From a virus (lineage: Duplodnaviria > Heunggongvirae > Uroviricota > Caudoviricetes), in the IMG/VR virus record IMGVR_UViG_3300025012_000032: a DNA stretch of 48,589 nt; one strand, 5' to 3'. The notes under the pieces are model-generated. The model did no database searches, had not been told where the DNA came from, and saw only the letters and a list, made by a program, of their open reading frames with translations. The position numbers and the translations under genes were made by a program. This document shows positions 5,692-20,785 of the stretch, in pieces (the stretch's first letter is position 1; each line of letters opens with the position of its first letter).

Positions 5692-5706
5692 GGGTAATTA
5701 GTTTGC

Positions 5707-5732: not shown

Positions 5733-5762
5733 GAAATTGTTAAATTAATAAATAATATTTGT

Positions 5763-5791: not shown

Positions 5792-5829
5792 GTTAGTGGA
5801 GAGATATAATATAAGAAGGAGGTTAGGAT

Positions 5830-7560
5830 ATGTTAATTACAAAAGAAGTTGAAGTTGAATTAAATTCAAAAACTATTACGTTATTTGAAAATAAAGGTTA
5901 TAATATACCAAAAATAATGAATAGGAGAAAAAAATTAATTGTAAAAAGAGGAACAAAGATTATTATAAAAGTTGAAGACTTATCTGATAAATCTATGGTT
6001 TTAGTAGACATTGAATGTGACGGATGTGGCGAGATATTAGAAAATATAGCATGGCAATTCTATAATAAATATGTAAAAGAAAATGGTAAATACTATTGTG
6101 TAAAATGCGCACAAAATGGATACAAAAAATACACTTCATTTTATGAATGGTGTTATATTAATTTATCTAAAGAAGATGCTGATTTAATAATGTTAAGATG
6201 GGATTACGAATTAAATGTTGATAAGAATGGAAAAATATTAAGTCCCCAAACCACTACTTATGGTTCTCATGGCTTAAAGGAAAGAGGGTATTGGTTTAAA
6301 TGTCTTGAGCATCCCGAACACAAATCGGAACAAAAGCGCATTAAAGACTTTACTAATGGACATGTAGGTAGTATTACTTGCAATCAATGTAATTCTATCT
6401 CAATTACTCATCCTTATTTGGTGAAATATTTAATAAATAAAGAAGATGCATTAAAGTATACAGTTTATGCAAATACAAAAATACCTATGAAATGTCCTGA
6501 ATGTGGATTTGAAAAAGAAACGTCTCTTAATACTTTAGTAAGCCAAGGGTTTGGTTGCAATAGTTGTGGAGATGGTATAAGTTACCCAGAAAAGTTTGTA
6601 GTAAATGTATTGGAACAGTTAAATAAAATTTTTAAACCCCAATTAACTAAAACAACTTTTAAGTGGTGTGGTAAATATAAATATGATAATTATATAGAAA
6701 AAATAAATTGTATTATAGAAACTCATGGAAATCAGCATTATGAAGAACGTACAACTGGTAGATGGAATAAGTCATTAAAAGAAACCCAAGAGAACGATTT
6801 CGATAAGGAATGGTTGGCTAGAAGTAATAATATTAAAAATTACATAATTTTAGATTGTAGAGAATCAGATATGAACTGGATAAAAAATAGTATTATGAAT
6901 AGTAAGTTACCTCAGTTATTAGATTTTAAAGAAAAGGATATAGATTGGTTGAAGTGTAATGAGTGGGCATGTAATAGTATGGTTAAAGAAGTTAGTAATT
7001 TGTGGAATATTGGCATAAAAAGCACATTAGAAATAAAACAAAGATTAAAATTAAGTAAGAGTTCAGTTGTAAGATATCTCAATCAAGGTGCATTGTTAGG
7101 ATGGTGTGATTATAATGGTAACGAGGAAAGAAGAAAAAGAGTATGTAAAAAAATAATATGTTTATTTAATAATGAAATATTTGAAAGTATAACCACAGCA
7201 TCTAATAAATACAATATAGAAGATAGCGATATAAGTAAATGTTGTAGCGGTAAATGTAAATCAGCAGGAATACACCCAGATACGAAAGAAAAAATGGTTT
7301 GGATGTACTATGAAGAATATATTTTAAAAACAGAAGGAGAAATTATTAAAATATTAAGTGACGCTCAAGACAAAAAAATAATATGTTTAAACGATGGAGA
7401 AATTTTCAATTCCACAATAGAAGCATCTTTAAAGTATCAAATTTCTCCATCTAGTATATCTAATTGTTGTCATCATCGTCAAAAGTCAGGAGGAATTCAT
7501 CATATTACAGGTGAAAAACTTGTATGGATGTTCTACAATGAGCATATTTTAACAATTTAG
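5830..7560 (+). CDS. Free-standing endonuclease-like protein: Zn-ribbon repeats + PD-(D/E)xK (DUF559/Vsr-like) domain + two NUMOD1-like DNA-binding repeats
   Basis: Multiple CxxC pairs; YKYDNYI...IIETHGNQHY nuclease motif; two C-terminal KKIICL..EIF.S...AS.KY.I..S.IS.CC repeats. Confidence 0.8.
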   Translation: MLITKEVEVELNSKTITLFENKGYNIPKIMNRRKKLIVKRGTKIIIKVEDLSDKSMVLVDIECDGCGEILENIAWQFYNKYVKENGKYYCVKCAQNGYKKYTSFYEWCYINLSKEDADLIMLRWDYELNVDKNGKILSPQTTTYGSHGLKERGYWFKCLEHPEHKSEQKRIKDFTNGHVGSITCNQCNSISITHPYLVKYLINKEDALKYTVYANTKIPMKCPECGFEKETSLNTLVSQGFGCNSCGDGISYPEKFVVNVLEQLNKIFKPQLTKTTFKWCGKYKYDNYIEKINCIIETHGNQHYEERTTGRWNKSLKETQENDFDKEWLARSNNIKNYIILDCRESDMNWIKNSIMNSKLPQLLDFKEKDIDWLKCNEWACNSMVKEVSNLWNIGIKSTLEIKQRLKLSKSSVVRYLNQGALLGWCDYNGNEERRKRVCKKIICLFNNEIFESITTASNKYNIEDSDISKCCSGKCKSAGIHPDTKEKMVWMYYEEYILKTEGEIIKILSDAQDKKIICLNDGEIFNSTIEASLKYQISPSSISNCCHHRQKSGGIHHITGEKLVWMFYNEHILTI

Positions 7561-7589
7561 GTGCAATTTAAAACTTAGTTTTGGTTATT

Positions 7590-8399
7590 TTATAAATAAA
7601 ACTTCTCATATTTATCTACCTTGCTCTGTTTTACAGAAGATGATCTATAATGATAGTCGAAATATGATTTATCGCTTGAAATAAAATCACGTAATATCTT
7701 CTTAACAAATCCGAATATGTTTTTAATATAAGTTTTGGAATTATAACAAATGTGTAAAGCTTCTTTTAATTGATCGCTAGTTGCTTTAACAGACATAGCA
7801 ATTCTATACAAACTAATTCCCTCATAAGAATTTGGATCAATATTACTATCCTTCAGAACATTTAAGAAACTTAAATCTTTTATCTCATCTTTCCAAAATT
7901 CTTCTTTTGCAATCTTCTTAGCCTCTGAATCCATACATACATTATTAGATAATTGTGTATTATATGTAATGATAGGGACATCTTGTTCTACTTCTTGGAC
8001 ATCTTGTCTTTTTTTATCCACAGGTTTAGAGGGGATTGGAACACCCAATAATCCATATAAAACATCTAAATCAATCCTATATGATTTTCCATGATACCAA
8101 TCTTTAGATTCAAACTGTTCTGAGATAAGAACTTTCTTATTCTCTAAATCCTTAATTGCTCTTTGAATCGTCTTGACTGATTTATTGAGTTCTAAGGCCC
8201 ACTCATTTACAGTCTTATAAACCCATAAGAAACCATCTCTATGCTTAGTTGCTCTGTTTAACCAGTATTTTAAACGAGATAGTAATTCAGCTTGGGTCTG
8301 ACCAAAAACATTAACTACAGTAGGTTGAACAATAATAGGCATTTCATTAGGAATAATTAAATCTAGCATGATTAAAAACCTTCTTTCAGCATTTTTCAT
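7590..8399 (-). CDS. Replication initiator-like protein with N-terminal winged HTH (likely start 8369)
   Basis: LLSRLKYW...WVYKTVNEWALELNKSVKTIQRAIKDLE...YRIDLD matches phage/plasmid replisome-organizer wHTH proteins; adjacent to DnaA boxes and par genes. Confidence 0.72.
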   Translation of the reverse strand: MKNAERRFLIMLDLIIPNEMPIIVQPTVVNVFGQTQAELLSRLKYWLNRATKHRDGFLWVYKTVNEWALELNKSVKTIQRAIKDLENKKVLISEQFESKDWYHGKSYRIDLDVLYGLLGVPIPSKPVDKKRQDVQEVEQDVPIITYNTQLSNNVCMDSEAKKIAKEEFWKDEIKDLSFLNVLKDSNIDPNSYEGISLYRIAMSVKATSDQLKEALHICYNSKTYIKNIFGFVKKILRDFISSDKSYFDYHYRSSSVKQSKVDKYEKFYL

Positions 8400-8454
8400 A
8401 GCAATGCTGAAGACTACTGTTTACAAATTTTTAAAATCATGATAAAATGACTTA

Positions 8455-8535
8455 AAGAATTTAATACGAGTCTTCAGGGGTCTCCTAGTTTAGTGATGTG
8501 TCGCCACAACTCAAGCACTAACTAGGAGATTTTTT
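8455..8535 (+). ncRNA. Candidate counter-transcribed antisense RNA to the rep leader
   Basis: Promoter TTTACA(8420)-17-TAAAAT(8443), no ORF, ends in hairpin TCTCCTAGTT/AACTAGGAGA plus T6. Confidence 0.6.
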
Positions 8536-8680
8536 CATTACCTATTCAATTTGATTAATTTTACTCAACAAAAAAGTTAGTAGCATGTACATCTCTGCAA
8601 CACTACTAACTTTGAAATCCTTAATCTAATTTATCATCTAAAGACTTGATTTTCTTAATGTCTTTAGTTATAATAATCTT

Positions 8681-8760
8681 AAGAACTAAAAGCTTAATGT
8701 TGGTTCAGAACATTTTGCTAAAAGAAAAACTTGATCTTTGCAAGAGGTCAGGTTTTTCGC
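8681..8760 (+). ncRNA. Second candidate small RNA antisense to the rep upstream region
   Basis: Promoter TTGATT(8646)-17-TATAAT(8669) and terminator-like hairpin at 8724-8758. Confidence 0.45.
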
Positions 8761-8802
8761 ATTTATTGAGTTAATTTGATTTTTGATTTGATTGAGTTAT
8801 AT

Positions 8803-8828
8803 ATTCGACAGGTTGATACAAATCTCCT
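8803..8828 (-). promoter_or_regulatory. Sigma-H-like promoter pointing toward rep
   Basis: Minus strand AGGA-18 bp-GAAT (gaAGGAgattt...gtcGAATat). Confidence 0.5.
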
Positions 8829-8855
8829 TCTGATTAAGTATCATATCACAAATTA

Positions 8856-8901
8856 TTATCCACAGGAATAGGTTTAAGAAAATTTATCCACATGTTGATA
8901 A
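8856..8901. promoter_or_regulatory. DnaA-box cluster (putative plasmid-type origin)
   Basis: TTATCCACA at 8856 and 8884, inverted 1-mismatch box at 8893-8901, and another perfect box inside rep at 8014. Confidence 0.7.
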
Positions 8902-8931
8902 CTCATAAGGCCAACAATAAAACGAAAAAAT

Positions 8932-8967
8932 AAGCACTATCCAGTTAATTTTGGATAGTGCTTTTTC
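8932..8967. terminator. Bidirectional terminator
   Basis: AAGCACTATCCA/TGGATAGTGCTT inverted repeat flanked by A and T runs. Confidence 0.75.
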
Positions 8968-8981
8968 TATTTAAAACTATT

Positions 8982-9803
8982 TTACCTTACACTCACTGGC
9001 AACCATATTTTCTCCTTAATTTCCAATCTTTCACTTTCCTTTTTCATCTCACTAATCCTATTATCACACTCATCTTTCATTTCTTGTCTTAACACCCTCA
9101 ATTCCAACATATAACTTTCTCTCAATTCACTAATTTCCTTAATTCTATCTTGTTTTGATTCAACCAATTGCCCTTCTAAAAATACTGATCTAGCATCGGA
9201 TTCCTTTAATTGAAGTTGTAAATATTTATTGGAATCTTCCATTTCACCAATTGAAAACTCTAATTCATCTACAGACCCAATTCTTTTCTTTATCTCTTCA
9301 TTTTCTAATCGTAATGTCTCAATCAAATAATTTGAGTTATTATGTCCGGCCTCTAACTCAATATTTCTTTTGGATAAAGTCTCCGACTTATCTTCTGCTT
9401 CTTTTTTTGCTTTATCAGAATCTTTTTTGCTATTCTCAGCAATATCAATTCTTTCTCTTAGAGAGTCTAATGTTGTCTTAAAATCATTAGTCAATGTTTG
9501 AACTGTTTCCATATGAAATCTTTTTTGGTCTGCTTCACTGCGAGTAATTTCAGTAAACATTTGGACAATTCTTTCTACATGCTCTTTTACTTTTATCATT
9601 TGAGGAGTTATGAGTTCAGATATTCCACCTGATTCTGTTTCTAATTGATCTTTCTTTAGTCTGATGACATCAAGCAATAAGTCTTTTGATGTTAAACCCG
9701 TGCGAGTTTGAAGTGCGACCCATTCATTTTTACCATCTTCATTGTCTAGTCGGATTGAAAGTGATGGTGAGGATGCTCTTCGAGTGTCTTCAGATTCATT
9801 CAT
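8982..9803 (-). CDS. KfrA-like protein: short N-terminal DNA-binding (RHH-like) domain plus long coiled coil
   Basis: SLSIRLD...EWVALQTRTGLTSKDLLLDVI followed by about 200 aa of heptad E/K/L-rich sequence; divergent from parM. Confidence 0.55.
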   Translation of the reverse strand: MNESEDTRRASSPSLSIRLDNEDGKNEWVALQTRTGLTSKDLLLDVIRLKKDQLETESGGISELITPQMIKVKEHVERIVQMFTEITRSEADQKRFHMETVQTLTNDFKTTLDSLRERIDIAENSKKDSDKAKKEAEDKSETLSKRNIELEAGHNNSNYLIETLRLENEEIKKRIGSVDELEFSIGEMEDSNKYLQLQLKESDARSVFLEGQLVESKQDRIKEISELRESYMLELRVLRQEMKDECDNRISEMKKESERLEIKEKIWLPVSVR

Positions 9804-9830
9804 GATTTAGTGCCTCCTTTGAGGTTTAAT

Positions 9831-9900
9831 AATGTATACATTTTAGGTAGTTATAATGGTACGTATACGCATGTATACGTGCTGACATAATGTATACATT
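9831..9900. repeat. Array of four GTATAC-centred palindromes (operator or centromere candidate)
   Basis: GTATAC at 9834, 9863, 9873 and 9892; the outer two are perfect AATGTATACATT 12-mers. Confidence 0.7.
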
Positions 9901-9980
9901 GATATTTGTGTTTATTATATCAGGAGGAATTGGATTAGGCAAGGGAGTATAATTTTATTGATATGTCACATAAAAATGTG

Positions 9981-10009
9981 TTGCAAAGTGTGATGTGAAT
10001 CTATATACT
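9981..10009 (+). promoter_or_regulatory. Sigma-A promoter of parMR
   Basis: TTGCAA-17 bp-TATACT. Confidence 0.6.
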
Positions 10010-10048
10010 AGATGTAACAGCATATTAAAATATTAAGGAGGAGTTTTT

Positions 10049-10903
10049 ATGGTTCAAGTAATACCTATTGATACAGGCCGAAGTTCTACTAAACTTTTAA
10101 ATGGAGTGTCTTTTAGATCAGTGGTTGGTGAATGGCATCATAGAGAAATTTCTGATAATGAGGAATATGAAGTTATTATTGATGGTGAAAAATATTTTGT
10201 TGGTCAACTCGCCATAGATGAATCAATTGCCCCAGTGGAGTTTAACACCTCTTCAAAGATTACCAATGAGAACAAAGTTCTTTTCCTGACTGGAGTTGCT
10301 TTGTCAACAGTTGAAAATGATGAAGATACTAGTCTTTTCATTGTAACTGGTGTACCAGTTGATATGTTTAACATTTCAACAAAGACAGCTTTAGAAAACT
10401 TATTACATGGAGAGTATAATATTAGAGTTAATGATAAACATATCAAGAAGTTATGTATTGATAGTGTTACGATTGTTCCTGAAGGGGTCGCTGCATATCA
10501 ATACCAACTATCAAAAGATGATAGTTTAAGGCTTGGTAAGAAGAGAATAATTGATATTGGTTCTCTCACAGTGAATTTTTCGACAATATCCGACACTAAA
10601 TTCATAAATCGTGATTCTGGAACTTTAGCGTTCGGCATGATCAAGATCAGAGGAAATCAGGTTAGTAATGAGCAATATGTGAAACGTATTATCGCAGAGT
10701 TATCCCAAAAGTTCAGCGATTACGATCCTACTGACCGTGTATTACTTACTGGAGGTGGAGCCTTACAATTCAGTGAATTATTTAGAAAACACTATAAAAA
10801 TTTAGAGATAATTGACAATCCTATATTTGCCAATACTCTTGGTTATTATAGAATGGGCGTGAGTAGATGCATCAAGGAAAACATGAAAGTAAAGACAGAG
10901 TAA
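10049..10903 (+). CDS. parM: Actin-like plasmid segregation ATPase (ParM/StbA family)
   Basis: IDTGRSSTK, IVTGVP, VPEGVAA, IIDIGSLTVN, LLTGGGA and ANTLGY actin-fold motifs. Confidence 0.9.
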   Translation: MVQVIPIDTGRSSTKLLNGVSFRSVVGEWHHREISDNEEYEVIIDGEKYFVGQLAIDESIAPVEFNTSSKITNENKVLFLTGVALSTVENDEDTSLFIVTGVPVDMFNISTKTALENLLHGEYNIRVNDKHIKKLCIDSVTIVPEGVAAYQYQLSKDDSLRLGKKRIIDIGSLTVNFSTISDTKFINRDSGTLAFGMIKIRGNQVSNEQYVKRIIAELSQKFSDYDPTDRVLLTGGGALQFSELFRKHYKNLEIIDNPIFANTLGYYRMGVSRCIKENMKVKTE

Positions 10904-11112
10904 GGAGAAAAGTTGTTTATTTTAATTTGGAAGATGAAGACGAATTATTACTTTTTGAAAAGGCAACTAAAATGAACAATTTTAGTAAATGGGTTAAAAA
11001 GTGCCTCATTAATAATGGGAAGAACGTAATAAAAGAACCAATTATTGAGCAACCTAAGATTGAAAGAAAGACGAGGATAGAGAAAGATGATTTTGAAGAT
11101 ATAATGATGTGA
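10867..11112 (+). CDS. ParR-like RHH adaptor
   Basis: Small ORF overlapping the parM end; VVYFNL...ELLLFEKA...NFSKWVKKCL with an acidic tail. Confidence 0.7.
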   Translation: MHQGKHESKDRVRRKVVYFNLEDEDELLLFEKATKMNNFSKWVKKCLINNGKNVIKEPIIEQPKIERKTRIEKDDFEDIMM

Positions 11113-11151
11113 GATGCAATTGTAATGATTGTGTCTTCTTTTTATTTTATT

Positions 11152-11187
11152 AAGTATGACTAAAAGTATGACTAAAAGTATGATAGA
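11152..11187 (+). repeat. 12-bp tandem repeat x3 (AAGTATGACTAA)
   Basis: Copies at 11152, 11164 and 11176 (last one degenerate), just downstream of parR. Confidence 0.75.
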
Positions 11188-11376
11188 TCGTGTGATTATA
11201 GGGGTTAGAGATAATGAAGTATGCTATAAAGTATTAAGTCTTGAAAAATCAGGGCTTTTTATTTTTGTTTAATATAAATTCCCATTTATTGCTATACATA
11301 ACGTACAAACAATGCTCAATAAGATTAATCATGAAACATTTTCAGACATTGAAAAAGATTGAGGGTGATTATCTAA

Positions 11377-11619
11377 ATGCTCAATAAAGTAGAAGTAGAA
11401 ATATTGCAACATATGTTGCAAAACAAATTAACCGATCAAATCAATAGTCGTACTATCCGTAATATCAGTAAGGGGATTGAGATTAATTATTTCAGAACTA
11501 GAAATTATGTAAATCACTTGAAACTTCTTGGGTTATTGGACTCTGGATTTAAGGAGTTGAACAGTGGAACTTTTTACATTACTAAAAAAGGGGTTGAAAT
11601 TATCAATGAAAAAACCTGA
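11377..11619 (+). CDS. Small winged-HTH protein
   Basis: TIRNISKGIEINYFRTRNYVNHLKLLGL...FYITKKG. Confidence 0.7.
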   Translation: MLNKVEVEILQHMLQNKLTDQINSRTIRNISKGIEINYFRTRNYVNHLKLLGLLDSGFKELNSGTFYITKKGVEIINEKT

Positions 11620-11848
11620 AATTAGATTAAAAACAAAACCAATATTAACCAGTAAACCAATTATTCCAACACAATGTCCCAATCCTAAATGTAGATCATC
11701 AAACATTATTGGCAAAGGAATGGTAATCGGTATGGCTTATATTAATCTTGAAACTATGAATGTCGATGAACTAGGTGATGATTTTGAAGTTTGTGATAAA
11801 GATAATTTAATGTATAGGTGTTTTGATTGTGGAAAAGAGTGGGAGTAA
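11606..11848 (+). CDS. Zn-ribbon hypothetical protein
   Basis: CPNPKC...CFDCG; ATG at 11606 overlaps the previous stop region. Confidence 0.65.
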   Translation: MKKPEIRLKTKPILTSKPIIPTQCPNPKCRSSNIIGKGMVIGMAYINLETMNVDELGDDFEVCDKDNLMYRCFDCGKEWE

Positions 11849-11868
11849 ATTTTAAGGAGGAATTATCA

Positions 11869-12138
11869 ATGCAAGCATATTTTACTAAATTTGATAATGA
11901 TTCTAATTGGGTCAAAGGTAAAGTTGGAAGATTTAGATTTGATGCTAAACTATTTAATGTTGGTTCAAGATTTGGAATTGAAGGTAGAAGAGTTAGTGCA
12001 TTAACGATATGCGACGAATATGAATATGTGGTTAATTATGATAGAGGATGGGATATTGAACCAAGTGAGGATATTGCGGATTATTTTAATGCTGTAATGG
12101 ATTTGTTGGAGAATAGTGATGAGAGGGATTTGGATTGA
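11869..12138 (+). CDS. Conserved MGE hypothetical protein (DUF7678-like by recall)
   Basis: AGGAGG RBS; WVKGKVGRFRFDAK.F..GS.FGI...VS.L...NYDRGWDIEP. Confidence 0.6.
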   Translation: MQAYFTKFDNDSNWVKGKVGRFRFDAKLFNVGSRFGIEGRRVSALTICDEYEYVVNYDRGWDIEPSEDIADYFNAVMDLLENSDERDLD

Positions 12139-12162
12139 TTAATGTTGAGGAGGGATTATTAA

Positions 12163-12375
12163 ATGAGAATTAAATTATCAATAATGATTAACCAAGGTCG
12201 TAGAATCCATGACATTATTAATCATTTGGAATTTGATAGTGTTGAACATTTTGCTGATTATAAGAGGGAATTTTATGAGGATTTAATGGTTAGAGGTTGG
12301 AGAAAGGTTTATATGAGTGCAAATCAATGTTATAAAGGCAATTTGGTTTTGACTCCTTATTTTATAAGGGAGTGA
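12163..12375 (+). CDS. Hypothetical protein
   Basis: 70 aa ORF with GAGGAGG RBS. Confidence 0.65.
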   Translation: MRIKLSIMINQGRRIHDIINHLEFDSVEHFADYKREFYEDLMVRGWRKVYMSANQCYKGNLVLTPYFIRE

Positions 12376-12378
12376 ACT

Positions 12379-12936
12379 ATGAAAAAACCAAGCAAAAAAT
12401 TATTATTCTCTCTTGTATTGTTAACATTATTATCAATACCTCATCCTGTATCTGCCAAAGGAGAATTAACAACTGAACAAGCTAAAAGTATTTTAAATAT
12501 CATCATTGATAAAACTTATACACTTCTCACTTATTACTCTTCTCCTTGGATTTATCCTGTAGATGGAATTATCACAAGTCCTTATGGGCCAAGAGGATCT
12601 TCAATAGATGGATTTCATCATGGTTTAGACATCTCAGCAGTAGAAAATAGTCCAGTTCATGCTTCTAAATTAGGTGTTGTAGTTAAAGCGGAATTTAACG
12701 AAATGGTTGGAAATGTTGTGTGTATCAATCATTCAGATGGATTTCAAACTATGTATGCACACAACAATAAACTACTAGTCAAAGTTGGAGATAATGTAGA
12801 GCAAAATGGTGTTATTGCTTTATCTGGTAATACAGGATTATTGTCAAGAGGGCCACATGTACATTTTGAGATTCGAACCAACAATGGGACAAATTCATTA
12901 AATCCGATGAATTATTTACCTGCTAAACAAAAATAA
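12379..12936 (+). CDS. Secreted M23 family peptidase (cell-wall hydrolase)
   Basis: Signal peptide; ITSPYG, HHGLD, YAH and GPHVHFEI motifs. Confidence 0.92.
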   Translation: MKKPSKKLLFSLVLLTLLSIPHPVSAKGELTTEQAKSILNIIIDKTYTLLTYYSSPWIYPVDGIITSPYGPRGSSIDGFHHGLDISAVENSPVHASKLGVVVKAEFNEMVGNVVCINHSDGFQTMYAHNNKLLVKVGDNVEQNGVIALSGNTGLLSRGPHVHFEIRTNNGTNSLNPMNYLPAKQK

Positions 12937-12977
12937 ACCCCTCAAATGAGGGGATGATATGGGTCATATGATATTCA

Positions 12978-13079
12978 TTATTGAATTAATCTTCCTAATT
13001 GTTGTGCGATATCTACCAATTGATATGATCCATACCCAATTAATCCTACTCCAATTGCTGTTCCGAATATTAAAAACAT
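12978..13079 (-). CDS. 33-aa single-TM peptide (MFLIFGTAIGVGLIGYGSYQLVDIAQQLGRLIQ)
   Basis: AAGGAGTG RBS, ATG at 13079, TAA at 12978; below the ORF-track cutoff. Confidence 0.6.
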   Translation of the reverse strand: MFLIFGTAIGVGLIGYGSYQLVDIAQQLGRLIQ

Positions 13080-13115
13080 GAATTTCACTCCTTTAAATAA
13101 TATTTCAATAATTGT

Positions 13116-13140
13116 AGTATTACCAAACTATATGTCGAAT
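13116..13140 (+). promoter_or_regulatory. Sigma-H-like promoter upstream of the transfer operon
   Basis: AGTA-17 bp-GAAT (gtcGAATat), same -10 context as the 8803 site. Confidence 0.4.
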
Positions 13141-13313
13141 ATACATGAATTGATGTAAATTTTAAGACAAGAACCCTATATTAACCACCTATACCAAAGA
13201 TAATACACCCTAAATCCTACAACCCTTTAATATCAATGATCTTAGACTTGAAAATGTGTGGTCTTCTTATATAGAGAGGCAGATTTGCCGACTGTTTTAA
13301 TTTTCAAAGGAGG

Positions 13314-13574
13314 TTGTTTACATTGAATGAATTTTTGAGTTGGTCAACAAAGATTTGTTTAGCTATGACTGCTCTTGGTGGAGGATTGGCTATGCTTATG
13401 ATAGTCTGGTCTGGGATTATGGACATCATCGGAAATGGGCAATGGAAAGCTCAAGCAAAAGAACTAAAGGAGAGTGTAATTAGAGGGTGTATTACTATTA
13501 TCTTTGGGCCTTGGGTTATTAAAATTCTTTGGACTATACTTAAAGGAATCTTCCCAACACTTCCTACATTTTAA
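13314..13574 (+). CDS. TrbC/VirB2-like pilin
   Basis: 86 aa with two hydrophobic helices; GGAGG RBS and TTG start; first gene of the T4SS-like operon. Confidence 0.65.
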   Translation: MFTLNEFLSWSTKICLAMTALGGGLAMLMIVWSGIMDIIGNGQWKAQAKELKESVIRGCITIIFGPWVIKILWTILKGIFPTLPTF

Positions 13575-13605
13575 TTATTGCAATTCTAAAGGGGGATGAT
13601 TATAA

Positions 13606-14640
13606 ATGCTTACAGTTGGAGAAGTTGGAGATGCAATTATTGATTTTTTTATTAAACCACCATCTCCTGAAACTGTTGATAAAGTAAATGGGGCATTATT
13701 TGATGTCCCTTCTCCAGAAACCGTAGAGAGTGTTAATAATGCTTTATTTAATGCACCTACACCACATGATATTTCTACGGTTAATGGGACATTAGAACAT
13801 TTTATTACTGATTCATTAGTACAAAACTTTGCACAATTATTTCTTCATACACCAAATGTATTGGCAGAAAATCCAACAATTTTATCTTTATATTCTTTCT
13901 TTTTAAAAATAATTATTTCATTTTCATTTGCAGGAATAGTATATTTTGGAATTACGCAAATCATGAATAAAGGTAGTAAACACAAAACATCAGAATATAT
14001 TGTGAAGATAGCTCAATCAATGGTGATTATAAATATAGCAATTATAGCTTTGCCATTATTAATTGAAGCAACAAACAAATTTACTATAGCAATTCTTTCC
14101 CTTGGTGGATCTGAAGCACAAATGGTAAAAGCATTAAGTCCTCAGTATGGATTAGGATTAATAATATTCACTATAATATTCGCATTAATATTAGTTAATC
14201 TAATATGGTTCTATTTTATGAGAATGATTTCTATTATGTTTCTTATTGCAACTGCTCCTATATTCTTCTTTTTATGGTTATTTCCTAAATACCAAAACAT
14301 GAGGCAAGTTTGGATTGATGAATTATTAGACAATTTAATTGCACCAATTATCCATGCAATAATTATGGTTATCTGGTTAGGATTTGAATCATCAGTCTCA
14401 AAATCATCTCATGGAGCACTTTATCATGTAATGCTTTCTATAGCTGCTGGTTCATTTATGCTTAAAGCACCTAGTTATGTACAGCAATGGATTAGTTATG
14501 GTCATCAAAGTCCAAATCCAGTTGCCATGTTTAAAGAGATCAAGTATGGATTAAGTCCTAGAAAACTTATAGGTATTGGTGGATTTGGAAGAATGGGAGG
14601 AAGTATGCTCAGAGGAAGAGGAACTACAAGAAGGAGGTAA
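13606..14640 (+). CDS. VirB6/TrbL-like polytopic membrane protein
   Basis: Multiple TM segments; YFMRMISIMFLIATAPIFFFLWLFP...W motif. Confidence 0.75.
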   Translation: MLTVGEVGDAIIDFFIKPPSPETVDKVNGALFDVPSPETVESVNNALFNAPTPHDISTVNGTLEHFITDSLVQNFAQLFLHTPNVLAENPTILSLYSFFLKIIISFSFAGIVYFGITQIMNKGSKHKTSEYIVKIAQSMVIINIAIIALPLLIEATNKFTIAILSLGGSEAQMVKALSPQYGLGLIIFTIIFALILVNLIWFYFMRMISIMFLIATAPIFFFLWLFPKYQNMRQVWIDELLDNLIAPIIHAIIMVIWLGFESSVSKSSHGALYHVMLSIAAGSFMLKAPSYVQQWISYGHQSPNPVAMFKEIKYGLSPRKLIGIGGFGRMGGSMLRGRGTTRRR

Positions 14641-14644
14641 ATTA

Positions 14645-14992
14645 ATGTTTAATAATGAGATGTTTGAAACTAATCAAATCATTGAAATGAAAGATGAAAT
14701 ATTTTATGGACTTACAGGGAAGCAAACTATTTATTTATTAGGTGGAATAGTGATTGGTTTATCTGTATTTAATACTGCATTACCTATTATTGCAAAACTA
14801 TTCATTCTACCAAATATAGGTATTCCTACTGCAATTTTAACTAAAACTGATGTGGATCAAGGGATAGTTTCTTTCTTTAAATTTAAGTGGAGAGGAATGA
14901 CAAAACAAAATGTTACAATACAACCTTTACCCAAAAGCAAATTATCTTTTAGCAACAAAAGAAGAGCAGACACTACTTCGATCCAAGTTTAA
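14645..14992 (+). CDS. PrgI/VirB3-like membrane protein
   Basis: AGGAGG RBS before ATG 14645; IEMKDEIFYGLTGKQ followed by two TM segments. Confidence 0.75.
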   Translation: MFNNEMFETNQIIEMKDEIFYGLTGKQTIYLLGGIVIGLSVFNTALPIIAKLFILPNIGIPTAILTKTDVDQGIVSFFKFKWRGMTKQNVTIQPLPKSKLSFSNKRRADTTSIQV

Positions 14993-16418
14993 GTATTTAT
15001 TAAATTCTCTAAATGAACCATTTAAGATTATTTGTAAAACTAATTTAAATCAATTAAATAAAGACACACAAATCAATGAATCAAACTACTCTCTTATTAC
15101 TAATGCTAATATTTACGAAAATTTGCGCAATTCAGGAATAGATTATAATCAAAGCGAATTATTAATTGCAAGTAATATTCAAGTGAAAGAACATCGAAAA
15201 TATATTACTGTCACTGAAAACAATGTAAAATATTTTGCTAAATCAATTAAGATTGTTCAGTTCCCTCAGATGCTTTCTATTGGATTCATAAACAACATCA
15301 TGATTCCAGATACCGAAATAACTCTTACAATCTTTCCATTGCCACAAGAAGAGGCTGTGAAGGTAGTAAAGAAGAGAATTGATACTACTGAAGCGAATGT
15401 AAATTGGAAGGCCGTAAAGAACCCTAATCAAGAGTATTATGTAGAAGATGAAATAGTATCTAAACTTCAAAAAACTATGGTTGATTTAATGGGTAATGAA
15501 GAAAAACTTTGTATGGTTGGATTATATATCTTAATTAAAGGACAAACACTTGAACAATTGGAAACAAAAGCAAAACAAATATCAATGCTTTTAGATGGAA
15601 TGCAAATTAGATTTAAATTCGCCAATTGTGAACATTTTAATTGTTTTAAGAATTTTAGGTCATATAAAGAAATTGATTATGTAAATGAGTTAAAAGTATT
15701 TTTGACAAGTGTAATTAGTAATTTCTATCCATTTGTTAGATATGTGTCAGGGGATGGAATTATTATCGGATTTGATTATCAAAACCATCAATTAATAAAG
15801 ATTAATTTTGCAGAGCAATTCAATCTTTCATGGTTTATTTTTGGAATTTCGGGAAGTGGCAAATCATTTGCTGTGAAAAGCATTGTCAAGAAAATATCAA
15901 TTCATAAGAAGATTTATATTCTTGATATTACTGGTGAATATGCAAAATTAAAATCAAAGAATATCATTGTTATTTCTAAAGATTTTGAGAAATTCCTATT
16001 ATACACTGATTTTAAAGATTGTATGATTGTAATTGATGAAGCGTGGGATATTTTAAAAACTGATGCAGTGATTAAAAGAGTAGTATCAATTGCAAAAGGA
16101 TATAGAAAGAGAGGAGTAGGTGTATTGGTCTGCACTCAAAACATTGCTGATACAAGTAAAGATGATATTGAATTGATTATTAAAAATTGTGCTAATACTT
16201 TAATTCTTCATTTGACTTCACTAGAACTTCAACATATTAGTGAATACATGAATATACCACATCACATTGTTAATTATCTTTCTAGGATTGAAAAAGGACA
16301 AGGATGGATGGTCATAGGAACAAAGCAATATGCTTTTAGACCAATTTTTAGTGATGAAGATTATTTATTACTTAATACTAATTATGAGGAAATGAAAGGA
16401 GTTGGTTATAATGGGTGA
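14910..16418 (+). CDS. VirB4-like conjugation ATPase
   Basis: Walker A GISGSGKS, Walker B IVIDEAW and RKRG...TQN. Confidence 0.85.
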   Translation: MLQYNLYPKANYLLATKEEQTLLRSKFKYLLNSLNEPFKIICKTNLNQLNKDTQINESNYSLITNANIYENLRNSGIDYNQSELLIASNIQVKEHRKYITVTENNVKYFAKSIKIVQFPQMLSIGFINNIMIPDTEITLTIFPLPQEEAVKVVKKRIDTTEANVNWKAVKNPNQEYYVEDEIVSKLQKTMVDLMGNEEKLCMVGLYILIKGQTLEQLETKAKQISMLLDGMQIRFKFANCEHFNCFKNFRSYKEIDYVNELKVFLTSVISNFYPFVRYVSGDGIIIGFDYQNHQLIKINFAEQFNLSWFIFGISGSGKSFAVKSIVKKISIHKKIYILDITGEYAKLKSKNIIVISKDFEKFLLYTDFKDCMIVIDEAWDILKTDAVIKRVVSIAKGYRKRGVGVLVCTQNIADTSKDDIELIIKNCANTLILHLTSLELQHISEYMNIPHHIVNYLSRIEKGQGWMVIGTKQYAFRPIFSDEDYLLLNTNYEEMKGVGYNG

Positions 16419-18105
16419 GAAACTTAGCAAGATTAAAGAATTAGCTATTAAGTCAGGTAAATATTCTGCTTTATATAGTGGTAAATTTATTCTAGGTGGT
16501 CTTGGTTATGCTGTTCAAATTGCTTCAAATGGGATATTAGGGATGGGCATTCCAGATTATAAACTGCCTAATTTAAAGTTTAATTCAACTAAAAGTGATA
16601 TTGAGGACAGGGTAATTCTTTCTCCTGAAAAATTTCTGCTTAAAAAAGATGGATTGAATCTTGGTAATGATTATTATAAAGATGGCAATATCATTAGATA
16701 TCCAATAAATTGTTTTGATGATCTTTGCAAAACATGGATATATATAGGAGACCCAGGCTGTGGCAAAACAACTCTAGCTGAAAATCAAGGAATTCAAATT
16801 GCTGAAATTAATAATCTAAAGAATTTTAAAACATGTGGATTCTGTGCTATTGATGTTGCAGATGGAATGTTAATAGATAATATTATGAATGCTTTACCTG
16901 AAAGCAGATTAGAAGATGTTATATTGTTAGACTTCTCAAACAAAAAGTTTCTTCCAGGAATTAATTTATTAGAATTTGGCGAAGAAGTAGAAAAACAATT
17001 TCCTCACTTTATTCATGCTGAAATAATCTCATTTTTTAAAGGAAGATTTGGAGAACAGATAGGATTTGCAAGTGAAGATTTATTAAGTAATTCTTTAAAT
17101 GCAATTTTAAAACAAACTGATCACTCCAAAACACTTATTAGTATTATGAAAATGTTGACTGAACCTGAGTATCGAGAACAAATACTAACCTCTTTGAGAA
17201 AAAATAAGAGGAATGCTTCAACAATTAGATATTGGGAAAGATTTGAAGCACAATCTCCTTCTGTAAAAAGAGACATAATTAAACCTATGATGAACAAGGT
17301 TGGAAATTTAACTAATAATGATTATCTAAAATCTATCATATGTCAAAATCATTCCACTATTGATTTCAGAAAAATTATGGATGAAGGAAAAATACTATTA
17401 ATTAAAGCACCTAAAATTGCTGTTGGAAAACCAAATATTGAAATTCTAATTCCTTTAATATTATCTAAGTTTTGGATTTCAGCATTATCTAGATTTGATA
17501 CTAATGACAAGGATCTGAGGAGGCCATATTTTTTACTCTGTGACGAACCTCAATTCTACCTTAATTCGGCAGGTATTGAAGAAATGTTAACAGAAATGAG
17601 AAAATATAGGCTAGGACTTCACTTTTTCTTTCAGTCCCCAGAACAAACTCAGATTCAATCAGTTATTAAGATGATGTTAGAAGTTAGACCACAAATATTA
17701 TCATTTTCAATAGGTCGTGGTGGAGCACAAACATTATTCAGAGAATTTGAAACAGGTGATGATGATATTGATAGACAAAATAGATATACAATTCTTAATC
17801 TGCCAAAATATCATGCTTTATGTAGATTCTTATACAAAAGTGAAAAGAGTGTAATGTTACTTCATACCAATAATACTGCTAAACATTTACGTAAAAAAGT
17901 ACCGGATATTGTTGTTGAAAATAGTCAAAAGTATTTACGTCCAGTTGAAGAAATTCTAGATGAAATTGCAGAATATGATTATATCCCAGAACCAGACTTT
18001 ACAATTGAGGTGAACAATAATGAACAGCAAAGATTTAATGTTGAAGAAGTTGACTTTAGGAACAAAGTTTCAAGATTTAACAAACCGAGATTTAGAGATA
18101 ATTAG
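16411..18105 (+). CDS. VirD4/TraD-like coupling ATPase
   Basis: GDPGCGKT, LLCDEPQ, EMRKYRLG..FFFQ; GGAG RBS before ATG 16411. Confidence 0.85.
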   Translation: MGEKLSKIKELAIKSGKYSALYSGKFILGGLGYAVQIASNGILGMGIPDYKLPNLKFNSTKSDIEDRVILSPEKFLLKKDGLNLGNDYYKDGNIIRYPINCFDDLCKTWIYIGDPGCGKTTLAENQGIQIAEINNLKNFKTCGFCAIDVADGMLIDNIMNALPESRLEDVILLDFSNKKFLPGINLLEFGEEVEKQFPHFIHAEIISFFKGRFGEQIGFASEDLLSNSLNAILKQTDHSKTLISIMKMLTEPEYREQILTSLRKNKRNASTIRYWERFEAQSPSVKRDIIKPMMNKVGNLTNNDYLKSIICQNHSTIDFRKIMDEGKILLIKAPKIAVGKPNIEILIPLILSKFWISALSRFDTNDKDLRRPYFLLCDEPQFYLNSAGIEEMLTEMRKYRLGLHFFFQSPEQTQIQSVIKMMLEVRPQILSFSIGRGGAQTLFREFETGDDDIDRQNRYTILNLPKYHALCRFLYKSEKSVMLLHTNNTAKHLRKKVPDIVVENSQKYLRPVEEILDEIAEYDYIPEPDFTIEVNNNEQQRFNVEEVDFRNKVSRFNKPRFRDN

Positions 18106-18784
18106 AGTTGTTAGAGATTTACAAATTGTTTCAAGAAGTCAACTTCAAATTATGTTCTTTCCTACAAAGCAAAGTTTAACTATTTGTAATAGAAGATTAG
18201 CAAAAATTGAGAAATTAGGATTTATTAATAGAACCCCTATTACTTTGAATGGTGAATCTTTAATTACTGCTGGAAAATTACTTTGCCTAGCAGGAGGAAC
18301 TTATATGTCTAAATTACCATCTGATTACACTCATCAATTATTAATGAATGAAATTTATGCTTTGTTGTTCAGAGAGCAGAATTTGAATAGGATTATCATT
18401 AAGCAATACAAACCTGAATTTGTTTATAAATTTAGGGACAAGGATGAAGGAAAGCAATATATTCTAAGGTCTGATATTTTAACTGTATTAGAGAAAAATG
18501 GGATGGATACAACTCTATTATTTGAGATAGATGCAGGGACAGAAACAAAGAAACAATTAAGAGAGAAGATTAATATTTATGAAAAAGTGTCTATGAAAGT
18601 AAAGGGATTTCCTCAATTGTTTTGGTTAGCAAATGACAAGGGATTCAGAAAATTAATTAGTTTGGACAAGGTTATTAATATTGCAAAAGTAGAAGAATTG
18701 AGAGAAAACTTTTATTTATGGACAAGATATCCTGATATGAAAAGGACAAGATTAATTCCTGATATTGTTGTTTGGAAAATATAA
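18020..18784 (+). CDS. Replication-relaxation family relaxase
   Basis: LTNRDLEII...VSRSQL...RRLAKI...H.LL.NE...RSD...LFEID.GTE pattern, directly after the coupling protein. Confidence 0.8.
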   Translation: MNSKDLMLKKLTLGTKFQDLTNRDLEIIRVVRDLQIVSRSQLQIMFFPTKQSLTICNRRLAKIEKLGFINRTPITLNGESLITAGKLLCLAGGTYMSKLPSDYTHQLLMNEIYALLFREQNLNRIIIKQYKPEFVYKFRDKDEGKQYILRSDILTVLEKNGMDTTLLFEIDAGTETKKQLREKINIYEKVSMKVKGFPQLFWLANDKGFRKLISLDKVINIAKVEELRENFYLWTRYPDMKRTRLIPDIVVWKI

Positions 18785-18809
18785 GAGAATGAAATGGAGG
18801 TATGATTAT

Positions 18810-18977
18810 ATGGGATTTTTAGGTAATTTAATTAGTAGTTTTAGCAAACCAGAAATTGATGTTGATGAGTTAGTAGATTTTATTGTTGAGGAGACACATA
18901 TTGATAGAAATACCATTGAAATTATCTTAGATATGGAAGAGATTTTTCTAAGAGAAAAGGGAATTATCATTGATTAA
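18810..18977 (+). CDS. Small acidic hypothetical protein
   Basis: GGAGG RBS before ATG 18810. Confidence 0.6.
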   Translation: MGFLGNLISSFSKPEIDVDELVDFIVEETHIDRNTIEIILDMEEIFLREKGIIID

Positions 18978-18999
18978 TAAATAAAAGGAGTGGATATTA

Positions 19000-19149
19000 A
19001 TGGATGAAACTTCTAGAACGTTTATTGAACAAGCAATTAATTTTCTTCAATTGGCTATAGATAAACATGGTAAAGTATCGCGTAATAAGGTGGAGACTAT
19101 AAAGAATATAATTGAGGAATTAGAAGATATTTTATATGGTAAGGAGTGA
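19000..19149 (+). CDS. 49-aa hypothetical protein
   Basis: AAGGAG RBS, ATG 19000, TGA 19147; followed by a GAGTGA/TCACTC hairpin and T run. Confidence 0.55.
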   Translation: MDETSRTFIEQAINFLQLAIDKHGKVSRNKVETIKNIIEELEDILYGKE

Positions 19150-19264
19150 TAAGTGTCACTCTTTTCTTTTTATGATTATTTTTAATAAATTTTAATAAAA
19201 TAGTGCTAAAATATTTGCAAAATCATAAATTATCTATATAATGATGAAAGAAGGTTGATTTGAG

Positions 19265-20785
19265 ATGATTTTTAAATTTGATAAAGGTGGAAATATGAAT
19301 ATGGAAGGAGATATTGATATGGGCAGAAAAGCTAAGGATAGGGAAAGGTTTAGTCAGATGGATATTGGTGTTGTTAATGCAGTGAAGGAAGAGGTGATGG
19401 GAATGGTTGATAAGTCAATGGCTGAAACTGCTGTTGGGTTTGAGTCGTTAAATGAAGACGAAGATATGGTTCAAAGAGAGATGAAAAACGATGAAATTTG
19501 GGATCGAGGGAACAAGGATGGAGTAGTTGAGGCGAGTAAGGATATGCCTAGTTTTGGTAGTTTAAGTGAAATTACTAAATTACAAGATGAAAACAATGTT
19601 AATGATTTTAGCGATGAAGATGAAACTGATGACCAGAAAAGTGAAGCTCAAAGAAAAAAGGATGAGTTGGCTAAGAAAAGGGAATTACGCAAACTTAAAC
19701 AAGAATTAAAACAAAATGACTTAAAGTTAAAAGAAAGTACAAGTTGGTCATTCTCTCCGGTAATTCCTGTTTACAATCAAGGAGAAATCACCAAGTACAT
19801 TTGTACAATTTCTTCATTTGATCTTGCCTCCTATTTTGAAAACTCAATTATACGCTTCATTCCTAGCATTCAGAGGGGAAGTGTTACTACTTCGGCTGGA
19901 AAAGAAAAAGACAATTTTTCCAATAAACATGTAAATGATATTTTTCAAGCTTTTACACAAAAGAAAATTTTTGGAAATACAATTGTCTTAAATTATTCAA
20001 CGAGCAACGAATCAGATTTAGTGTATAATCAAGAGGACAATAGTATTACAGGAGAAGGATATTTACAGGGAATAGATTTTAGTCACCGTGCTAGAGCTTC
20101 CATAAAATGGAAAAACTCTTGGATTAAACATCCAGACCAATATGATGATCCTAGGCAATTTTATTTTAATTGCGAAGTAAATGTGGTATCTGACGAAGAT
20201 GCGAGACAAATGTTCGCGGAATTGAACAATTTTTCGCTTAGAGTCAACCCCACAAGAACACATTATCTTGATAATAGTAATTATGCTAACAAAATTGCAA
20301 GAAGAATTGAAAAAGAGTCAGATTTAAAAAACAAGATCGAAACAGTTAGCACAACAATTAAAGGTTCTAGCCATAATATTTGTAGTTATGGAGTTTTAAC
20401 AAATGCAATTAAAAAAAATTATAAAGAACCTCAAACTAAATTAGATCAAACAAATGTTGAAAATTGGTTAATAGAATACATTGATGAACTTGTATCAATC
20501 TTTCCTCAATTTATGGCTAATCCCAATATAGAAGTTAAAAATGAGTTGAAGAAACAATATTTCACAATCGAGCCATTGGCAATTGGTGCGATGATAGCAT
20601 TAAGCGCAGTTTTAAAAGATGATCCTGATTGGAAAATTAAACTTTCTAAATTAATTAAAGATGATTTCTTTTTAAGAACCGCGAGTCGATGGAGGCCAGT
20701 ATTGAAAGAAGGAGGAAAAATTATCAATGGTACATCGAGCGTAAAGTATTTTAATGAAACCGTAATTAATTGGTGTACTAAATAA
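19265..20785 (+). CDS. DndB/DGQHR-domain (ParB-like) protein with an acidic N-terminal extension
   Basis: FIPSIQRG...IVLNY...IDFSHR...EDARQMFAELN...VN matches the DGQHR family layout, but the motif reads DFSHR. Confidence 0.7.
   Translation: MIFKFDKGGNMNMEGDIDMGRKAKDRERFSQMDIGVVNAVKEEVMGMVDKSMAETAVGFESLNEDEDMVQREMKNDEIWDRGNKDGVVEASKDMPSFGSLSEITKLQDENNVNDFSDEDETDDQKSEAQRKKDELAKKRELRKLKQELKQNDLKLKESTSWSFSPVIPVYNQGEITKYICTISSFDLASYFENSIIRFIPSIQRGSVTTSAGKEKDNFSNKHVNDIFQAFTQKKIFGNTIVLNYSTSNESDLVYNQEDNSITGEGYLQGIDFSHRARASIKWKNSWIKHPDQYDDPRQFYFNCEVNVVSDEDARQMFAELNNFSLRVNPTRTHYLDNSNYANKIARRIEKESDLKNKIETVSTTIKGSSHNICSYGVLTNAIKKNYKEPQTKLDQTNVENWLIEYIDELVSIFPQFMANPNIEVKNELKKQYFTIEPLAIGAMIALSAVLKDDPDWKIKLSKLIKDDFFLRTASRWRPVLKEGGKIINGTSSVKYFNETVINWCTK

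Follow-up and report, generated by a model that had tools for sequence, protein, structure and literature searches.

A replication and partition unit beside a conjugation-type operon in the genome of an SPbeta-like phage

Introduction

Could a tailed phage send its DNA out of the cell by a conjugation-type machinery as well as in particles? The question is raised by a block of genes at positions 7,590 to 19,149 of a 48,589-nucleotide stretch of DNA (the window throughout this text) from the IMG/VR record IMGVR_UViG_3300025012_000032, which belongs to a 276,924-bp scaffold (ENA ERZ28564339, scaffold_17) of an uncultured groundwater phage. Genes for a Rep-like replication initiator and a ParM-like partition system stand there next to genes resembling a type IV secretion system (T4SS) with its coupling ATPase and relaxase. 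A preliminary description of the sequence took the block for either a conjugative phage-plasmid or the result of cointegration between the phage and a small conjugative plasmid. We find that it consists of two separable, adjacent units, unit 1 at 7590-11260 and unit 2 at 11377-19164, and that the T4SS genes are intact, under purifying selection and vertically inherited in the phage lineage. Judging from gene content, we give a probability of roughly one half to the reading in which these are a maintenance unit and a conjugation-type operon of an SPbeta-like phage, the latter serving virion-independent export of phage DNA. If the operon works, this would be a tailed phage with two routes of spreading, particles and mating, and the line between phages and conjugative elements would be blurred; the persistence of large phages in biofilms, sediments or spores, where adsorption is limiting, might then be accounted for as well.

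The block lies on a single phage molecule

The replicon, the partition unit, a reduced Gram-positive-type T4SS and the relaxase do stand on one phage molecule, and every gene that the preliminary description had named was found in its place, with support that varies from gene to gene. The surroundings are phage-like, as had also been claimed. To the left of the block lies a cluster of a phage-type type II topoisomerase, ThyX and a deoxynucleoside monophosphate (dNMP) kinase, and to the right, inside the window, a lysis and tail cluster with an Amidase_3 lysin and an open reading frame (ORF) of 1111 amino acids (aa) with a YomF_N domain. Just past the window's end, the same scaffold has genes for a tape measure of 1906 aa (PhageMin_Tail), for a DUF6558 protein and for a YOMG_N/Prophage_tail protein of 1904 aa. 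The tape measure, the YOMG_N/Prophage_tail protein and the YomF_N ORF therefore point to a tail module of the SPbeta type, and the virion genes (tape measure, YomG/YomF-like genes and lysin) share one 276.9-kb scaffold with Rep and the ParM-like gene.

Such a neighbourhood might also arise from a chimeric assembly, or from a chromosome in which separate elements happen to adjoin. At each of the two ends of the block, 7.5 kb and 19.2 kb, a single contig runs across without a mismatch: a 4550-nt Logan contig (4082-8631) at the left junction in two groundwater samples, and a 6599-nt contig (15530-22128) at the right junction in sample X1; a 1750-nt contig in sample X3 covers 17364-19113. Read depth in X1, the deeper sample, was even with the flanks, at 118-147x through the greater part of block and flanks, one bin reaching 169x, and the gene order ThyX, Rep, ParM, T4SS genes, DndB-like was identical in at least seven assemblies made by different pipelines. 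The junction-spanning contigs, the even depth and the concordant assemblies exclude a chimeric assembly; as to a chromosome, housekeeping context is not present and the scaffold has SPbeta-type tail genes. We regard the probability of either origin as negligible.

Genes for capsid, portal and terminase were not located on the window's scaffold, about one fifth of which was covered. In the relatives G001-G003 (see below), Pfam hallmark searches for HK97 capsid, portal, sheath and baseplate J were all empty, and TerL gave a sub-threshold 21.7 bits; these empty searches say little, because Pfam covers SPbeta-type structural proteins poorly. The G+C content of the window is 0.25-0.35, and the host is probably a low-GC member of the Bacillota. 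The preliminary description had seen no integrase, and indeed no integrase domain was found in any scanned ORF of the window; among the relatives no serine recombinase was found, and G002 alone has a tyrosine recombinase.

Two units that are inherited and exchanged separately

Seven IMG/VR contigs carry the VirB4-like gene of unit 2 at 75-90% identity, and the operon is kept in the relatives, on contigs of 12.6 to 230 kb, at 73-99% amino-acid identity. One relative, L002 (identical with G003; 112.8 kb), has everything from Rep through the DndB-like gene that follows the block. The genomes G001 and G002 (227-230 kb, 100% complete by CheckV) have only 11377-20785 in common with it, at 73-88% amino-acid identity to the window, and no ParM or Rep homologue was found anywhere in either genome. 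Because they keep the T4SS without Rep and ParM, the Rep/Par and T4SS parts are separable. All T4SS genes showed ratios of nonsynonymous to synonymous substitution (dN/dS) of 0.02-0.31, at dS of 0.2-1.5. Identity to L002 is mosaic (relaxase 99%, pilin-like protein 99%, VirB4 90%, coupling ATPase 79%, ParM-like protein 62%, winged-helix protein 32%), which points to recombination with break-points inside the block.

A further relative, G004 (L017; IMGVR_UViG_3300025012_000140), whose topoisomerase is 83% identical to that of the window, has a different cassette at the same site. Its positions 3333-13498 correspond to 7590-20785 of the window and keep the same flanking genes, namely those for a 273-aa protein (85% identical), a small ORF and the DndB-like protein. 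The cassette encodes a Phage_rep_O-like protein, an Alp7A-like actin and its partner of 120 aa, a 470-aa ATPase of the FtsK/SpoIIIE family, an M23 peptidase and a 250-aa Replic_Relax-related protein (hhalign 92%, 7e-7); no VirB4 and no TrwB-type ATPase was found in it. The comparison of G004 with the window means that the cassettes at this site can replace one another and are alike in functional type, each having an actin-like segregation system, an ATPase that translocates DNA, a MOBC-like protein and a wall hydrolase. In G006, a more distant relative (topoisomerase 46% identical), the dNMP-kinase gene almost directly joins the homologue of 22767-23045, and the block is not on this 94-kb fragment, a record that is only 56% complete and so does not show the block to be missing from the genome. 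The value of the window is thus a comparative one: its T4SS operon is selected and phage-inherent, independent of Rep/ParM, and exchangeable with an FtsK-type cassette.

These comparisons bear directly on the idea that a small conjugative plasmid had recently cointegrated into the phage genome, one of the two readings in the preliminary description. Replicon, partition and transfer genes do adjoin as in a plasmid backbone, the region from 8 to 14 kb has a G+C content slightly above that of its flanks (0.31-0.33 versus 0.27-0.29), the best match overall of the ParM-like protein lies on an Alicyclobacillus plasmid (6e-28), and homologues of the coupling ATPase occur on large Clostridium plasmids (1e-31). 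However, a nucleotide search with 7000-20000 gave no match in 72,556 plasmids or in 50,697 phage records, and the best plasmid match of VirB4 (6e-8, over less than half of the protein) compares with 9e-28 over 93% for phage G, its nearest relative. The two units are moreover distributed differently among the relatives, being separable in G001 and G002, the context of the operon is unchanged in phages that have diverged to a dS of about 1, G004 has another cassette of the same functional type at the site, and read depth is even with the flanks. The module is one known as a phage operon (PMC3357382). Recent cointegration is thereby largely refuted, and we consider it very improbable; a conjugative phage-plasmid, the other reading, is possible on the genes present.

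Unit 2 encodes a reduced conjugation-type machinery

Terminators and promoters split the stretch into five transcriptional units: rep; the divergent 273-aa gene and parM-parR; a run from a winged helix-turn-helix (wHTH) gene to an M23 gene; a minus-strand peptide gene; and an operon from the pilin-like gene to the relaxase. Towards the end of this operon lies the gene for a coupling ATPase (T4CP) of TrwB/VirD4 type (16402..18105, plus strand; phrog_5156, 6.4e-71), a protein of 564-567 aa with one N-terminal hydrophobic segment. The 567-aa protein gave no direct Pfam match. The domains PF10412 TrwB_AAD_bind, PF02534 T4SS-DNA_transf and PF12696 TraG-D_C are present in distant homologues, at about 30% identity (1e-36), and with a 30-sequence profile TrwB of R388 (1.3e-8) and DotL (6e-8) came first among solved structures. 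Homologues and profile together argue for a coupling protein of the VirD4/TrwB/TraG class. Among the 50,697 phage records we found 116 T4CP matches, nearly all in phages of the Bacillus group (Bacillus 105, Geobacillus 5, Lysinibacillus 2, Deep-sea thermophilic phage D6E 2, Brevibacillus 1, Microcystis 1) and none in phages of Staphylococcus, Listeria, Streptococcus or Lactococcus. On plasmids of 170-266 kb from C. botulinum and C. sporogenes, a TrbC/VirB2-family gene is followed by an 800-aa homologue of the T4CP (26% identity over 85%), as in PLSDB NZ_CP013684.1 at 65513-68313 (L019 7595-10395). MOB-suite typed 95 of the 105 plasmids matching the T4CP as non-mobilizable.

The T4CP gene overlaps that for a 254-aa relaxase candidate of MOBC type (18020..18784, plus strand), which matches PF13814 (Replic_Relax) with 38.2 bits against a cut-off of 25.3. 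All 18 members of the family alignment match PF13814, and residues D24, F47, H105, D152, E169, D171, K183 and Y187 are invariant. An AlphaFold (AF2) model with a mean confidence (pLDDT) of 81 consists of a MarR-like winged helix (Z ~10) followed by an alpha/beta domain, the latter with weak Foldseek matches (E ~1e-3) to Can2-, VC1899- and EndoMS-type nucleases, type II restriction enzymes and the PD-(D/E)XK fold; a wide VIA-align search with the model was dominated by the winged helix and barely sampled the C-terminal domain. The family evolves fast, and a deep search of 1.8 billion proteins recovered no more than 15 representatives (E <= 1e-3). PF13814 defines the MobC class in CONJscan, and in streptococcal integrative and mobilizable elements the partners of such relaxases are coupling proteins of VirD4 type (PMC5357655). 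The above-cut-off match would place the protein in this recognised MOB class. It may belong with the MOBC relaxases of the CloDF13 MobC and pAD1 TraX type, in which a Replic_Relax domain combines an N-terminal HTH with a restriction-endonuclease-like catalytic domain; the Replic_Relax match and the winged helix are clear, and its nuclease-like C-terminal domain gives weak matches.

Directly upstream of the T4CP gene lies the gene for a 502-aa ATPase (14910..16418, plus strand) that is a divergent, short member of the VirB4 family. It matches the NCBIfam CD1110 family at 2.7e-29 (102 bits against a cut-off of 325), CedB at 8.9e-14 and the structure PDB 4ag5 at 4.6e-6, has the Walker A motif GISGSGKS and the Walker B motif IVIDEAW, and is 26% identical over 93% to phage G gp155; dN/dS was 0.11-0.13. 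A polytopic membrane protein of 344 aa (13606..14640, plus strand) resembles VirB6/TrbL, as judged indirectly. Its 70-80% identical homologues P0163 and P0167 carry TrbL_3, its family matches phage G gp153 by hhalign (78.6% probability, 1.7e-5), itself a TrbL_4 protein (1.8e-11), and language-model (Atlas) features point to TrbL clusters. Its dN/dS was about 0.1, and the AlphaFold model built from a shallow alignment (pLDDT 38) was unusable. By these signs the operon would include a VirB6/TrbL-like channel component of a conjugative T4SS.

Two smaller membrane proteins fit a T4SS by position and topology, with Pfam scores below cut-off. The first gene of the operon (13314..13574, plus strand) encodes a VirB2/T4SS-pilin-like protein of 83-86 aa with two transmembrane segments (T4SS_pilin, 2.2e-3; dN/dS 0.04-0.16), which weakly matches phage G gp150, a protein that does pass the T4SS_pilin cut-off. 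The gene before VirB4 (14576..14992, plus strand) encodes a PrgI/VirB3-like protein, 137 aa as called (PrgI, 1.3e-4), at a position matching that of phage G gp154 (weak match, 0.002).

The left part of unit 2 begins with a gene for an 80-aa winged-helix protein (11377..11619, plus strand; HTH_45, 4.3e-7; 54% identical in L003), the first gene of the unit common to all relatives. It is followed on the plus strand by genes for a DUF7678 protein (11869-12138; 2.1e-19) and a 70-aa protein (12163-12375), both called in seven assemblies and 68-89% identical in the relatives. Next comes a secreted M23 (LytM) peptidoglycan endopeptidase of 185 aa (12379..12936, plus strand; Peptidase_M23, 9e-29) with a signal peptide and a dN/dS of 0.14-0.17, and a terminator follows at 12938-12953. 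Between the M23 and pilin-like genes, seven assemblies call a minus-strand gene for a small hydrophobic peptide of 33-36 aa (12978..13088), whose start codon and ribosome-binding site of its own are kept in four lineages. Alignment of four lineages further revealed a conserved non-coding block (13125..13215) upstream of the T4SS operon, a candidate operator or promoter.

Unit 1 resembles a plasmid replicon with a partition locus

Unit 1 begins with a minus-strand gene (7590..8399) for a 269-aa Rep-like replication initiator, a wHTH protein of DnaD/O-like type that matches phrog_6493 'DnaD-like helicase loader' (3.3e-19) as well as a number of PHROGs for 'replication initiation'; it is 68% identical in L002 (dN/dS 0.29) and has no counterpart in G001 and G002. 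Its leader (8400..8981) is origin-like. A 46-bp piece of it holds two perfect DnaA boxes, TTATCCACA, at 8856-8864 and 8884-8892 and, on the minus strand, a one-mismatch box at 8893-8901; this arrangement is kept in L002. A two-way terminator is predicted at 8932-8963. Another perfect box is found at 8014, and the window has five perfect boxes in total. In contigs of three runs, 162 bp of the leader (8396-8559) are missing at a joint that has short flanks of 20-22 nt and a depth of 45/~170 in X1, a hint that this region varies within the population.

On the other side of the leader, the minus-strand gene 8982..9803 encodes the 273-aa protein, a coiled-coil protein with a possible N-terminal ribbon-helix-helix (RHH) segment, no Pfam match and no family. 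It always adjoins an actin-like gene, is 91% identical in L002 (dN/dS 0.08), and in G004 comes after the different (Alp7A-like) actin gene. Between it and the divergent parM lies a parC-like operator array (9831..9900) of four GTATAC palindromes, in which four of the window's seven GTATAC sites are packed into 65 bp and which is kept in L002; such an array between divergent genes has the layout expected for a type II partition locus. The ParM-like actin-family ATPase (10049..10903, plus strand; 284 aa) matches ALP_N (9.7e-22), phrog_691 'partition protein' (4.4e-49) and NCBIfam ParM (3.1e-17; 62.8 bits against a cut-off of 417). The end of its gene is overlapped by an ORF for an 81-aa protein (10867..11112, plus strand), for which RHH is indicated by sequence pattern and a MobC_2 match is sub-threshold. 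This protein is a candidate ParR adaptor; a complex prediction with the ParM-like protein scored 0.07, which is uninformative either way. AGTATGACTAAA-type repeats (11149-11234) lie 3' of the 81-aa gene, with a terminator at 11236-11257.

Like type II ParMRC of plasmid R1 and the Alp7A-type systems of Bacillus plasmids, the locus has an actin-like ATPase followed by a small protein of RHH pattern and preceded by a repeat array that doubles as promoter region; it differs from them in its low NCBIfam ParM identity and in the divergent, conserved 273-aa coiled-coil gene. Homologues of the ParM-like protein were found in 54 Bacillus-group phage records and on 36 plasmids. Two PLSDB 'plasmids', NZ_CP076118.1 (161,917 bp) of B. 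amyloliquefaciens and NZ_CP106792.1 (165,593 bp) of B. subtilis, match it at 27.6%, the same identity as in the 162-166 kb Bacillus phages 2S-4, FADO and PJN02, and phages of this kind may be present as episomes in isolate assemblies.

Relation to modules of cultured phages and to known systems

A 'DNA translocation operon' with a MobC-like relaxase, a coupling ATPase, a VirB6-like protein and an MreB-like protein was described in 0305phi8-36 and SPO1 by Pathria et al. (2012; PMC3357382), and of the phage G proteins only gp155/156 have been named TraC/TraD-like, with a function 'entirely unknown' (PMC12484599, 2025). The kind of module is thus known since 2012 and is also visible in the phage G genome, and all four parts of the 2012 operon are represented in the window. 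Phage G (497 kb), likewise a very large phage of a Bacillota host, matches the window in gene set and order, with the gp149 metallopeptidase, the gp150 T4SS_pilin protein, the gp153 TrbL_4 protein, gp154, the VirB4-like gp155 and the T4CP-like gp156. Its gp146 is a Replic_Relax protein (4e-25) homologous to the window relaxase and annotated '27.3 in phage SPO1'. Unlike in the window, gp146 lies upstream on the opposite strand, the peptidase is of the PhageMetallopep family instead of M23, gp156 is longer (825 aa), and no Rep/ParM unit adjoins in the stretch examined.

The operons of 0305phi8-36 (orf200-207), SPO1 (27.3-27.9) and CP-51 (gp90-gp96) share with the window a MOBC-like relaxase, a coupling ATPase and an actin-like protein, and in 0305phi8-36 also a VirB6-like protein. 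CP-51, which is SPO1-like, has the order actin-like gp96, small ORFs, ATPase gp91 and relaxase-like gp90, as in the window, and gp91 is homologous to the window's coupling ATPase (28% identity, 2e-36); in D6E a ParM-like gene is followed by a T4CP gene and an integrase. However, the annotation of the CP-51 stretch has no VirB4-, pilin- or PrgI-like gene and no M23 hydrolase, nor are any of these named in the account of the 2012 operon, and in the operons of 0305phi8-36, SPO1 and CP-51 the coupling ATPases are longer and have no transmembrane segment, and no Rep with DnaA boxes is attached. What is new in the window is a T4SS operon directly beside a Rep/DnaA-box/ParMRC unit, with the two units independent among relatives, and the swapping of a VirD4+VirB4 cassette and an FtsK-type cassette at one locus.

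Like Gram-positive conjugation systems (those with a CD1110-family VirB4, and the ICEBs1 Con, pCW3 Tcp and pCF10 Prg types), the window has a relaxase, a T4CP, VirB4, a VirB6-like protein, a candidate VirB3/PrgI-like protein and a wall hydrolase, whereas its VirB4 is about 300 residues shorter, its hydrolase is of the M23 type instead of a lytic transglycosylase or CHAP enzyme, and its carrier is a tailed phage. With the phage-plasmids of the P1, N15 and SSU5 groups it has in common a plasmid-type initiator and partition system and the lack of an integrase in the window; unlike in those groups, the sister genomes G001 and G002 are without the Rep/ParM unit, and the episomal state of the window phage is a predicted one. 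Phage-plasmids are described as being spread by virions, not by a T4SS of their own (PMC7969092, PMC12282955).

What the two units may do

Taken together, the gene products suggest the following course, which we infer because the roles of these families in conjugation are known. The relaxase, with its winged helix and restriction-endonuclease-like domain, would bind through the winged helix and nick phage DNA at a putative origin of transfer (oriT), the coupling ATPase would pass the strand to the VirB6 channel powered by VirB4, and the secreted M23 enzyme would open the peptidoglycan wall, so that phage DNA could enter an adjoining cell or compartment without a virion. Unit 2 would in this way act as a reduced Gram-positive-type conjugation operon. 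In unit 1, Rep with its DnaA boxes and the ParMRC system (the ParM-like protein, its RHH partner and the GTATAC array as centromere or operator, with the coiled-coil protein as a DNA-segregation accessory) would hold the genome as a low-copy episome in a carrier or lysogenic state.

Several points weigh against export as the function of the block. We know of no phage with this module for which DNA transfer has been shown, and the module carriers SPO1, G and 0305phi8-36 are regarded as lytic, for which conjugation of a plasmid-like prophage makes little sense. No laboratory growth defect followed deletion of the operon in 0305phi8-36 (PMC3357382). The VirB4 protein is short and scores far below curated family cut-offs, and the pilin and PrgI assignments are sub-cut-off. 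The preliminary description had noted that no VirB8/TcpC-like gene was obvious, and indeed the Pfam scan of the block's ORFs (7590-19149) gave no VirB8/TcpC/PrgL-like match at E <= 0.01 and no adhesin, both of which Gram-positive systems would lead one to expect; the small unassigned proteins (DUF7678 and the ORFs of 70, 94, 55 and 49 aa) have no transmembrane anchor, and replacement of VirB8 by a non-homologous substitute is possible. No oriT was found: the region 13089-13313 folds no better than shuffled sequences (z = 0.6) and has no known nic motif, and the inverted repeats at 18961-19233 have neither a significant fold nor a known nic motif and are not kept in L003 and L008. The plasmid lifestyle, lastly, is read from homology: Rep-like wHTH initiators occur among the ordinary replication genes of phages as well, and ParM-like genes are so common in large Bacillus phages (the 54 records above) that on their own they do not prove such a lifestyle.

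A different account of the same parts would be that they no longer export the genome and serve instead in replication initiation by nicking, in DNA uptake as in the archaeal Ced system, in protein secretion, in exclusion of rivals or in mobilising other DNA. The PHROG families that the relaxase matches go under 'replication initiation by nicking' or 'replication initiation protein', the VirB4-like protein matches the DNA-import ATPase CedB and the 567-aa protein weakly matches CedD, the Pfam scan found no VirB8-like part, and the 0305phi8-36 deletion is without a laboratory phenotype (PMC3357382). Yet the PHROG labels are automatic, the CedB match (8.9e-14) is much weaker than that to conjugative VirB4 (2.7e-29), and a relaxase, a VirD4-type ATPase, VirB4, VirB6 and a wall hydrolase in one operon form a signature of conjugative export. 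We therefore rate such a change of role as quite unlikely.

The recipient, on the other hand, might be the forespore instead of a neighbouring cell, with the module and the actin-like system trapping phage DNA in the endospore as a 'virospore' under a Spo0A switch. The T4CP matches among the 50,697 phage records are almost confined to phages of endospore formers, and the ParM-like matches show the same host pattern, although this pattern may merely mirror the phylogeny of the query. TGTCGAA, the heptamer of the Spo0A box (PMC12991052), occurs on the minus strand at 8804-8810, in the Rep leader amid its DnaA boxes, and at 10579-10585, and on the plus strand at 13133-13139 in the non-coding block upstream of the T4SS operon; these are three of the window's four copies. 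The copies checked are kept in relatives, and L002 (3395-3500) has two that are interspersed among its DnaA boxes. Over the window as a whole, however, the heptamer shows no enrichment (4 found versus 2.8 expected), and L003 has a one-base variant in the non-coding block. The ParM gene 27.9 of SPO1 has been tied to spore entrapment as a hypothesis (PMC12991052). Sporulation of the host is an assumption, and the link of the operon to spores a putative one. Entrapment in the forespore thus seems an unlikely purpose of the block.

Returning to virion-independent export, we may tentatively, and with more doubt than confidence, extend it to a wider group: large phages of spore-forming Bacillota would keep a relaxase-driven T4SS as a second route, independent of virions, into receptor-less neighbours or the forespore, and the locus would be a swappable 'DNA-translocation island' with a VirD4+VirB4 version (the window and G001-G003) and an FtsK/SpoIIIE-type version (G004). 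Cultured carriers of the module exist in phage G, CP-51, SPO1 and 0305phi8-36 and make its function testable.

Genes at the end of the block and beyond

Two small ORFs (55-70 aa and 49 aa; 18765..19164, plus strand) follow the relaxase gene, and the operon ends with a terminator at 19141-19164. The first of them has a homologue at the same place beside the alternative cassette of G004. The next gene, with a promoter of its own, encodes a DndB/DGQHR-like protein (19265..20785, plus strand; DndB, 1.8e-17) and is the constant right neighbour of the module in every relative, following the relaxase in L002, L003 and L008 and the FtsK-type cassette in G004. The gene is nevertheless a fast-evolving one (30-37% identity, dN/dS 0.3-0.6), and its nearest phage matches are in Clostridioides phages of 132-134 kb. 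A reading of the block as a defence system was set aside; PADLOC gave only a generic HerA/mad8 ATPase likeness, together with the DndB match for this neighbouring gene.

Lastly, paralogous genes resembling HNH/zinc-ribbon homing endonucleases (phrog_4538, phrog_559) border the block on both sides, at 5830-7560 and 21069-21827, with a further copy at 39049-40167. The same paralogues are placed differently in relatives (L003, 2966-4447 and 15681-17384), and these genes may drive the exchange of cassettes at this site.

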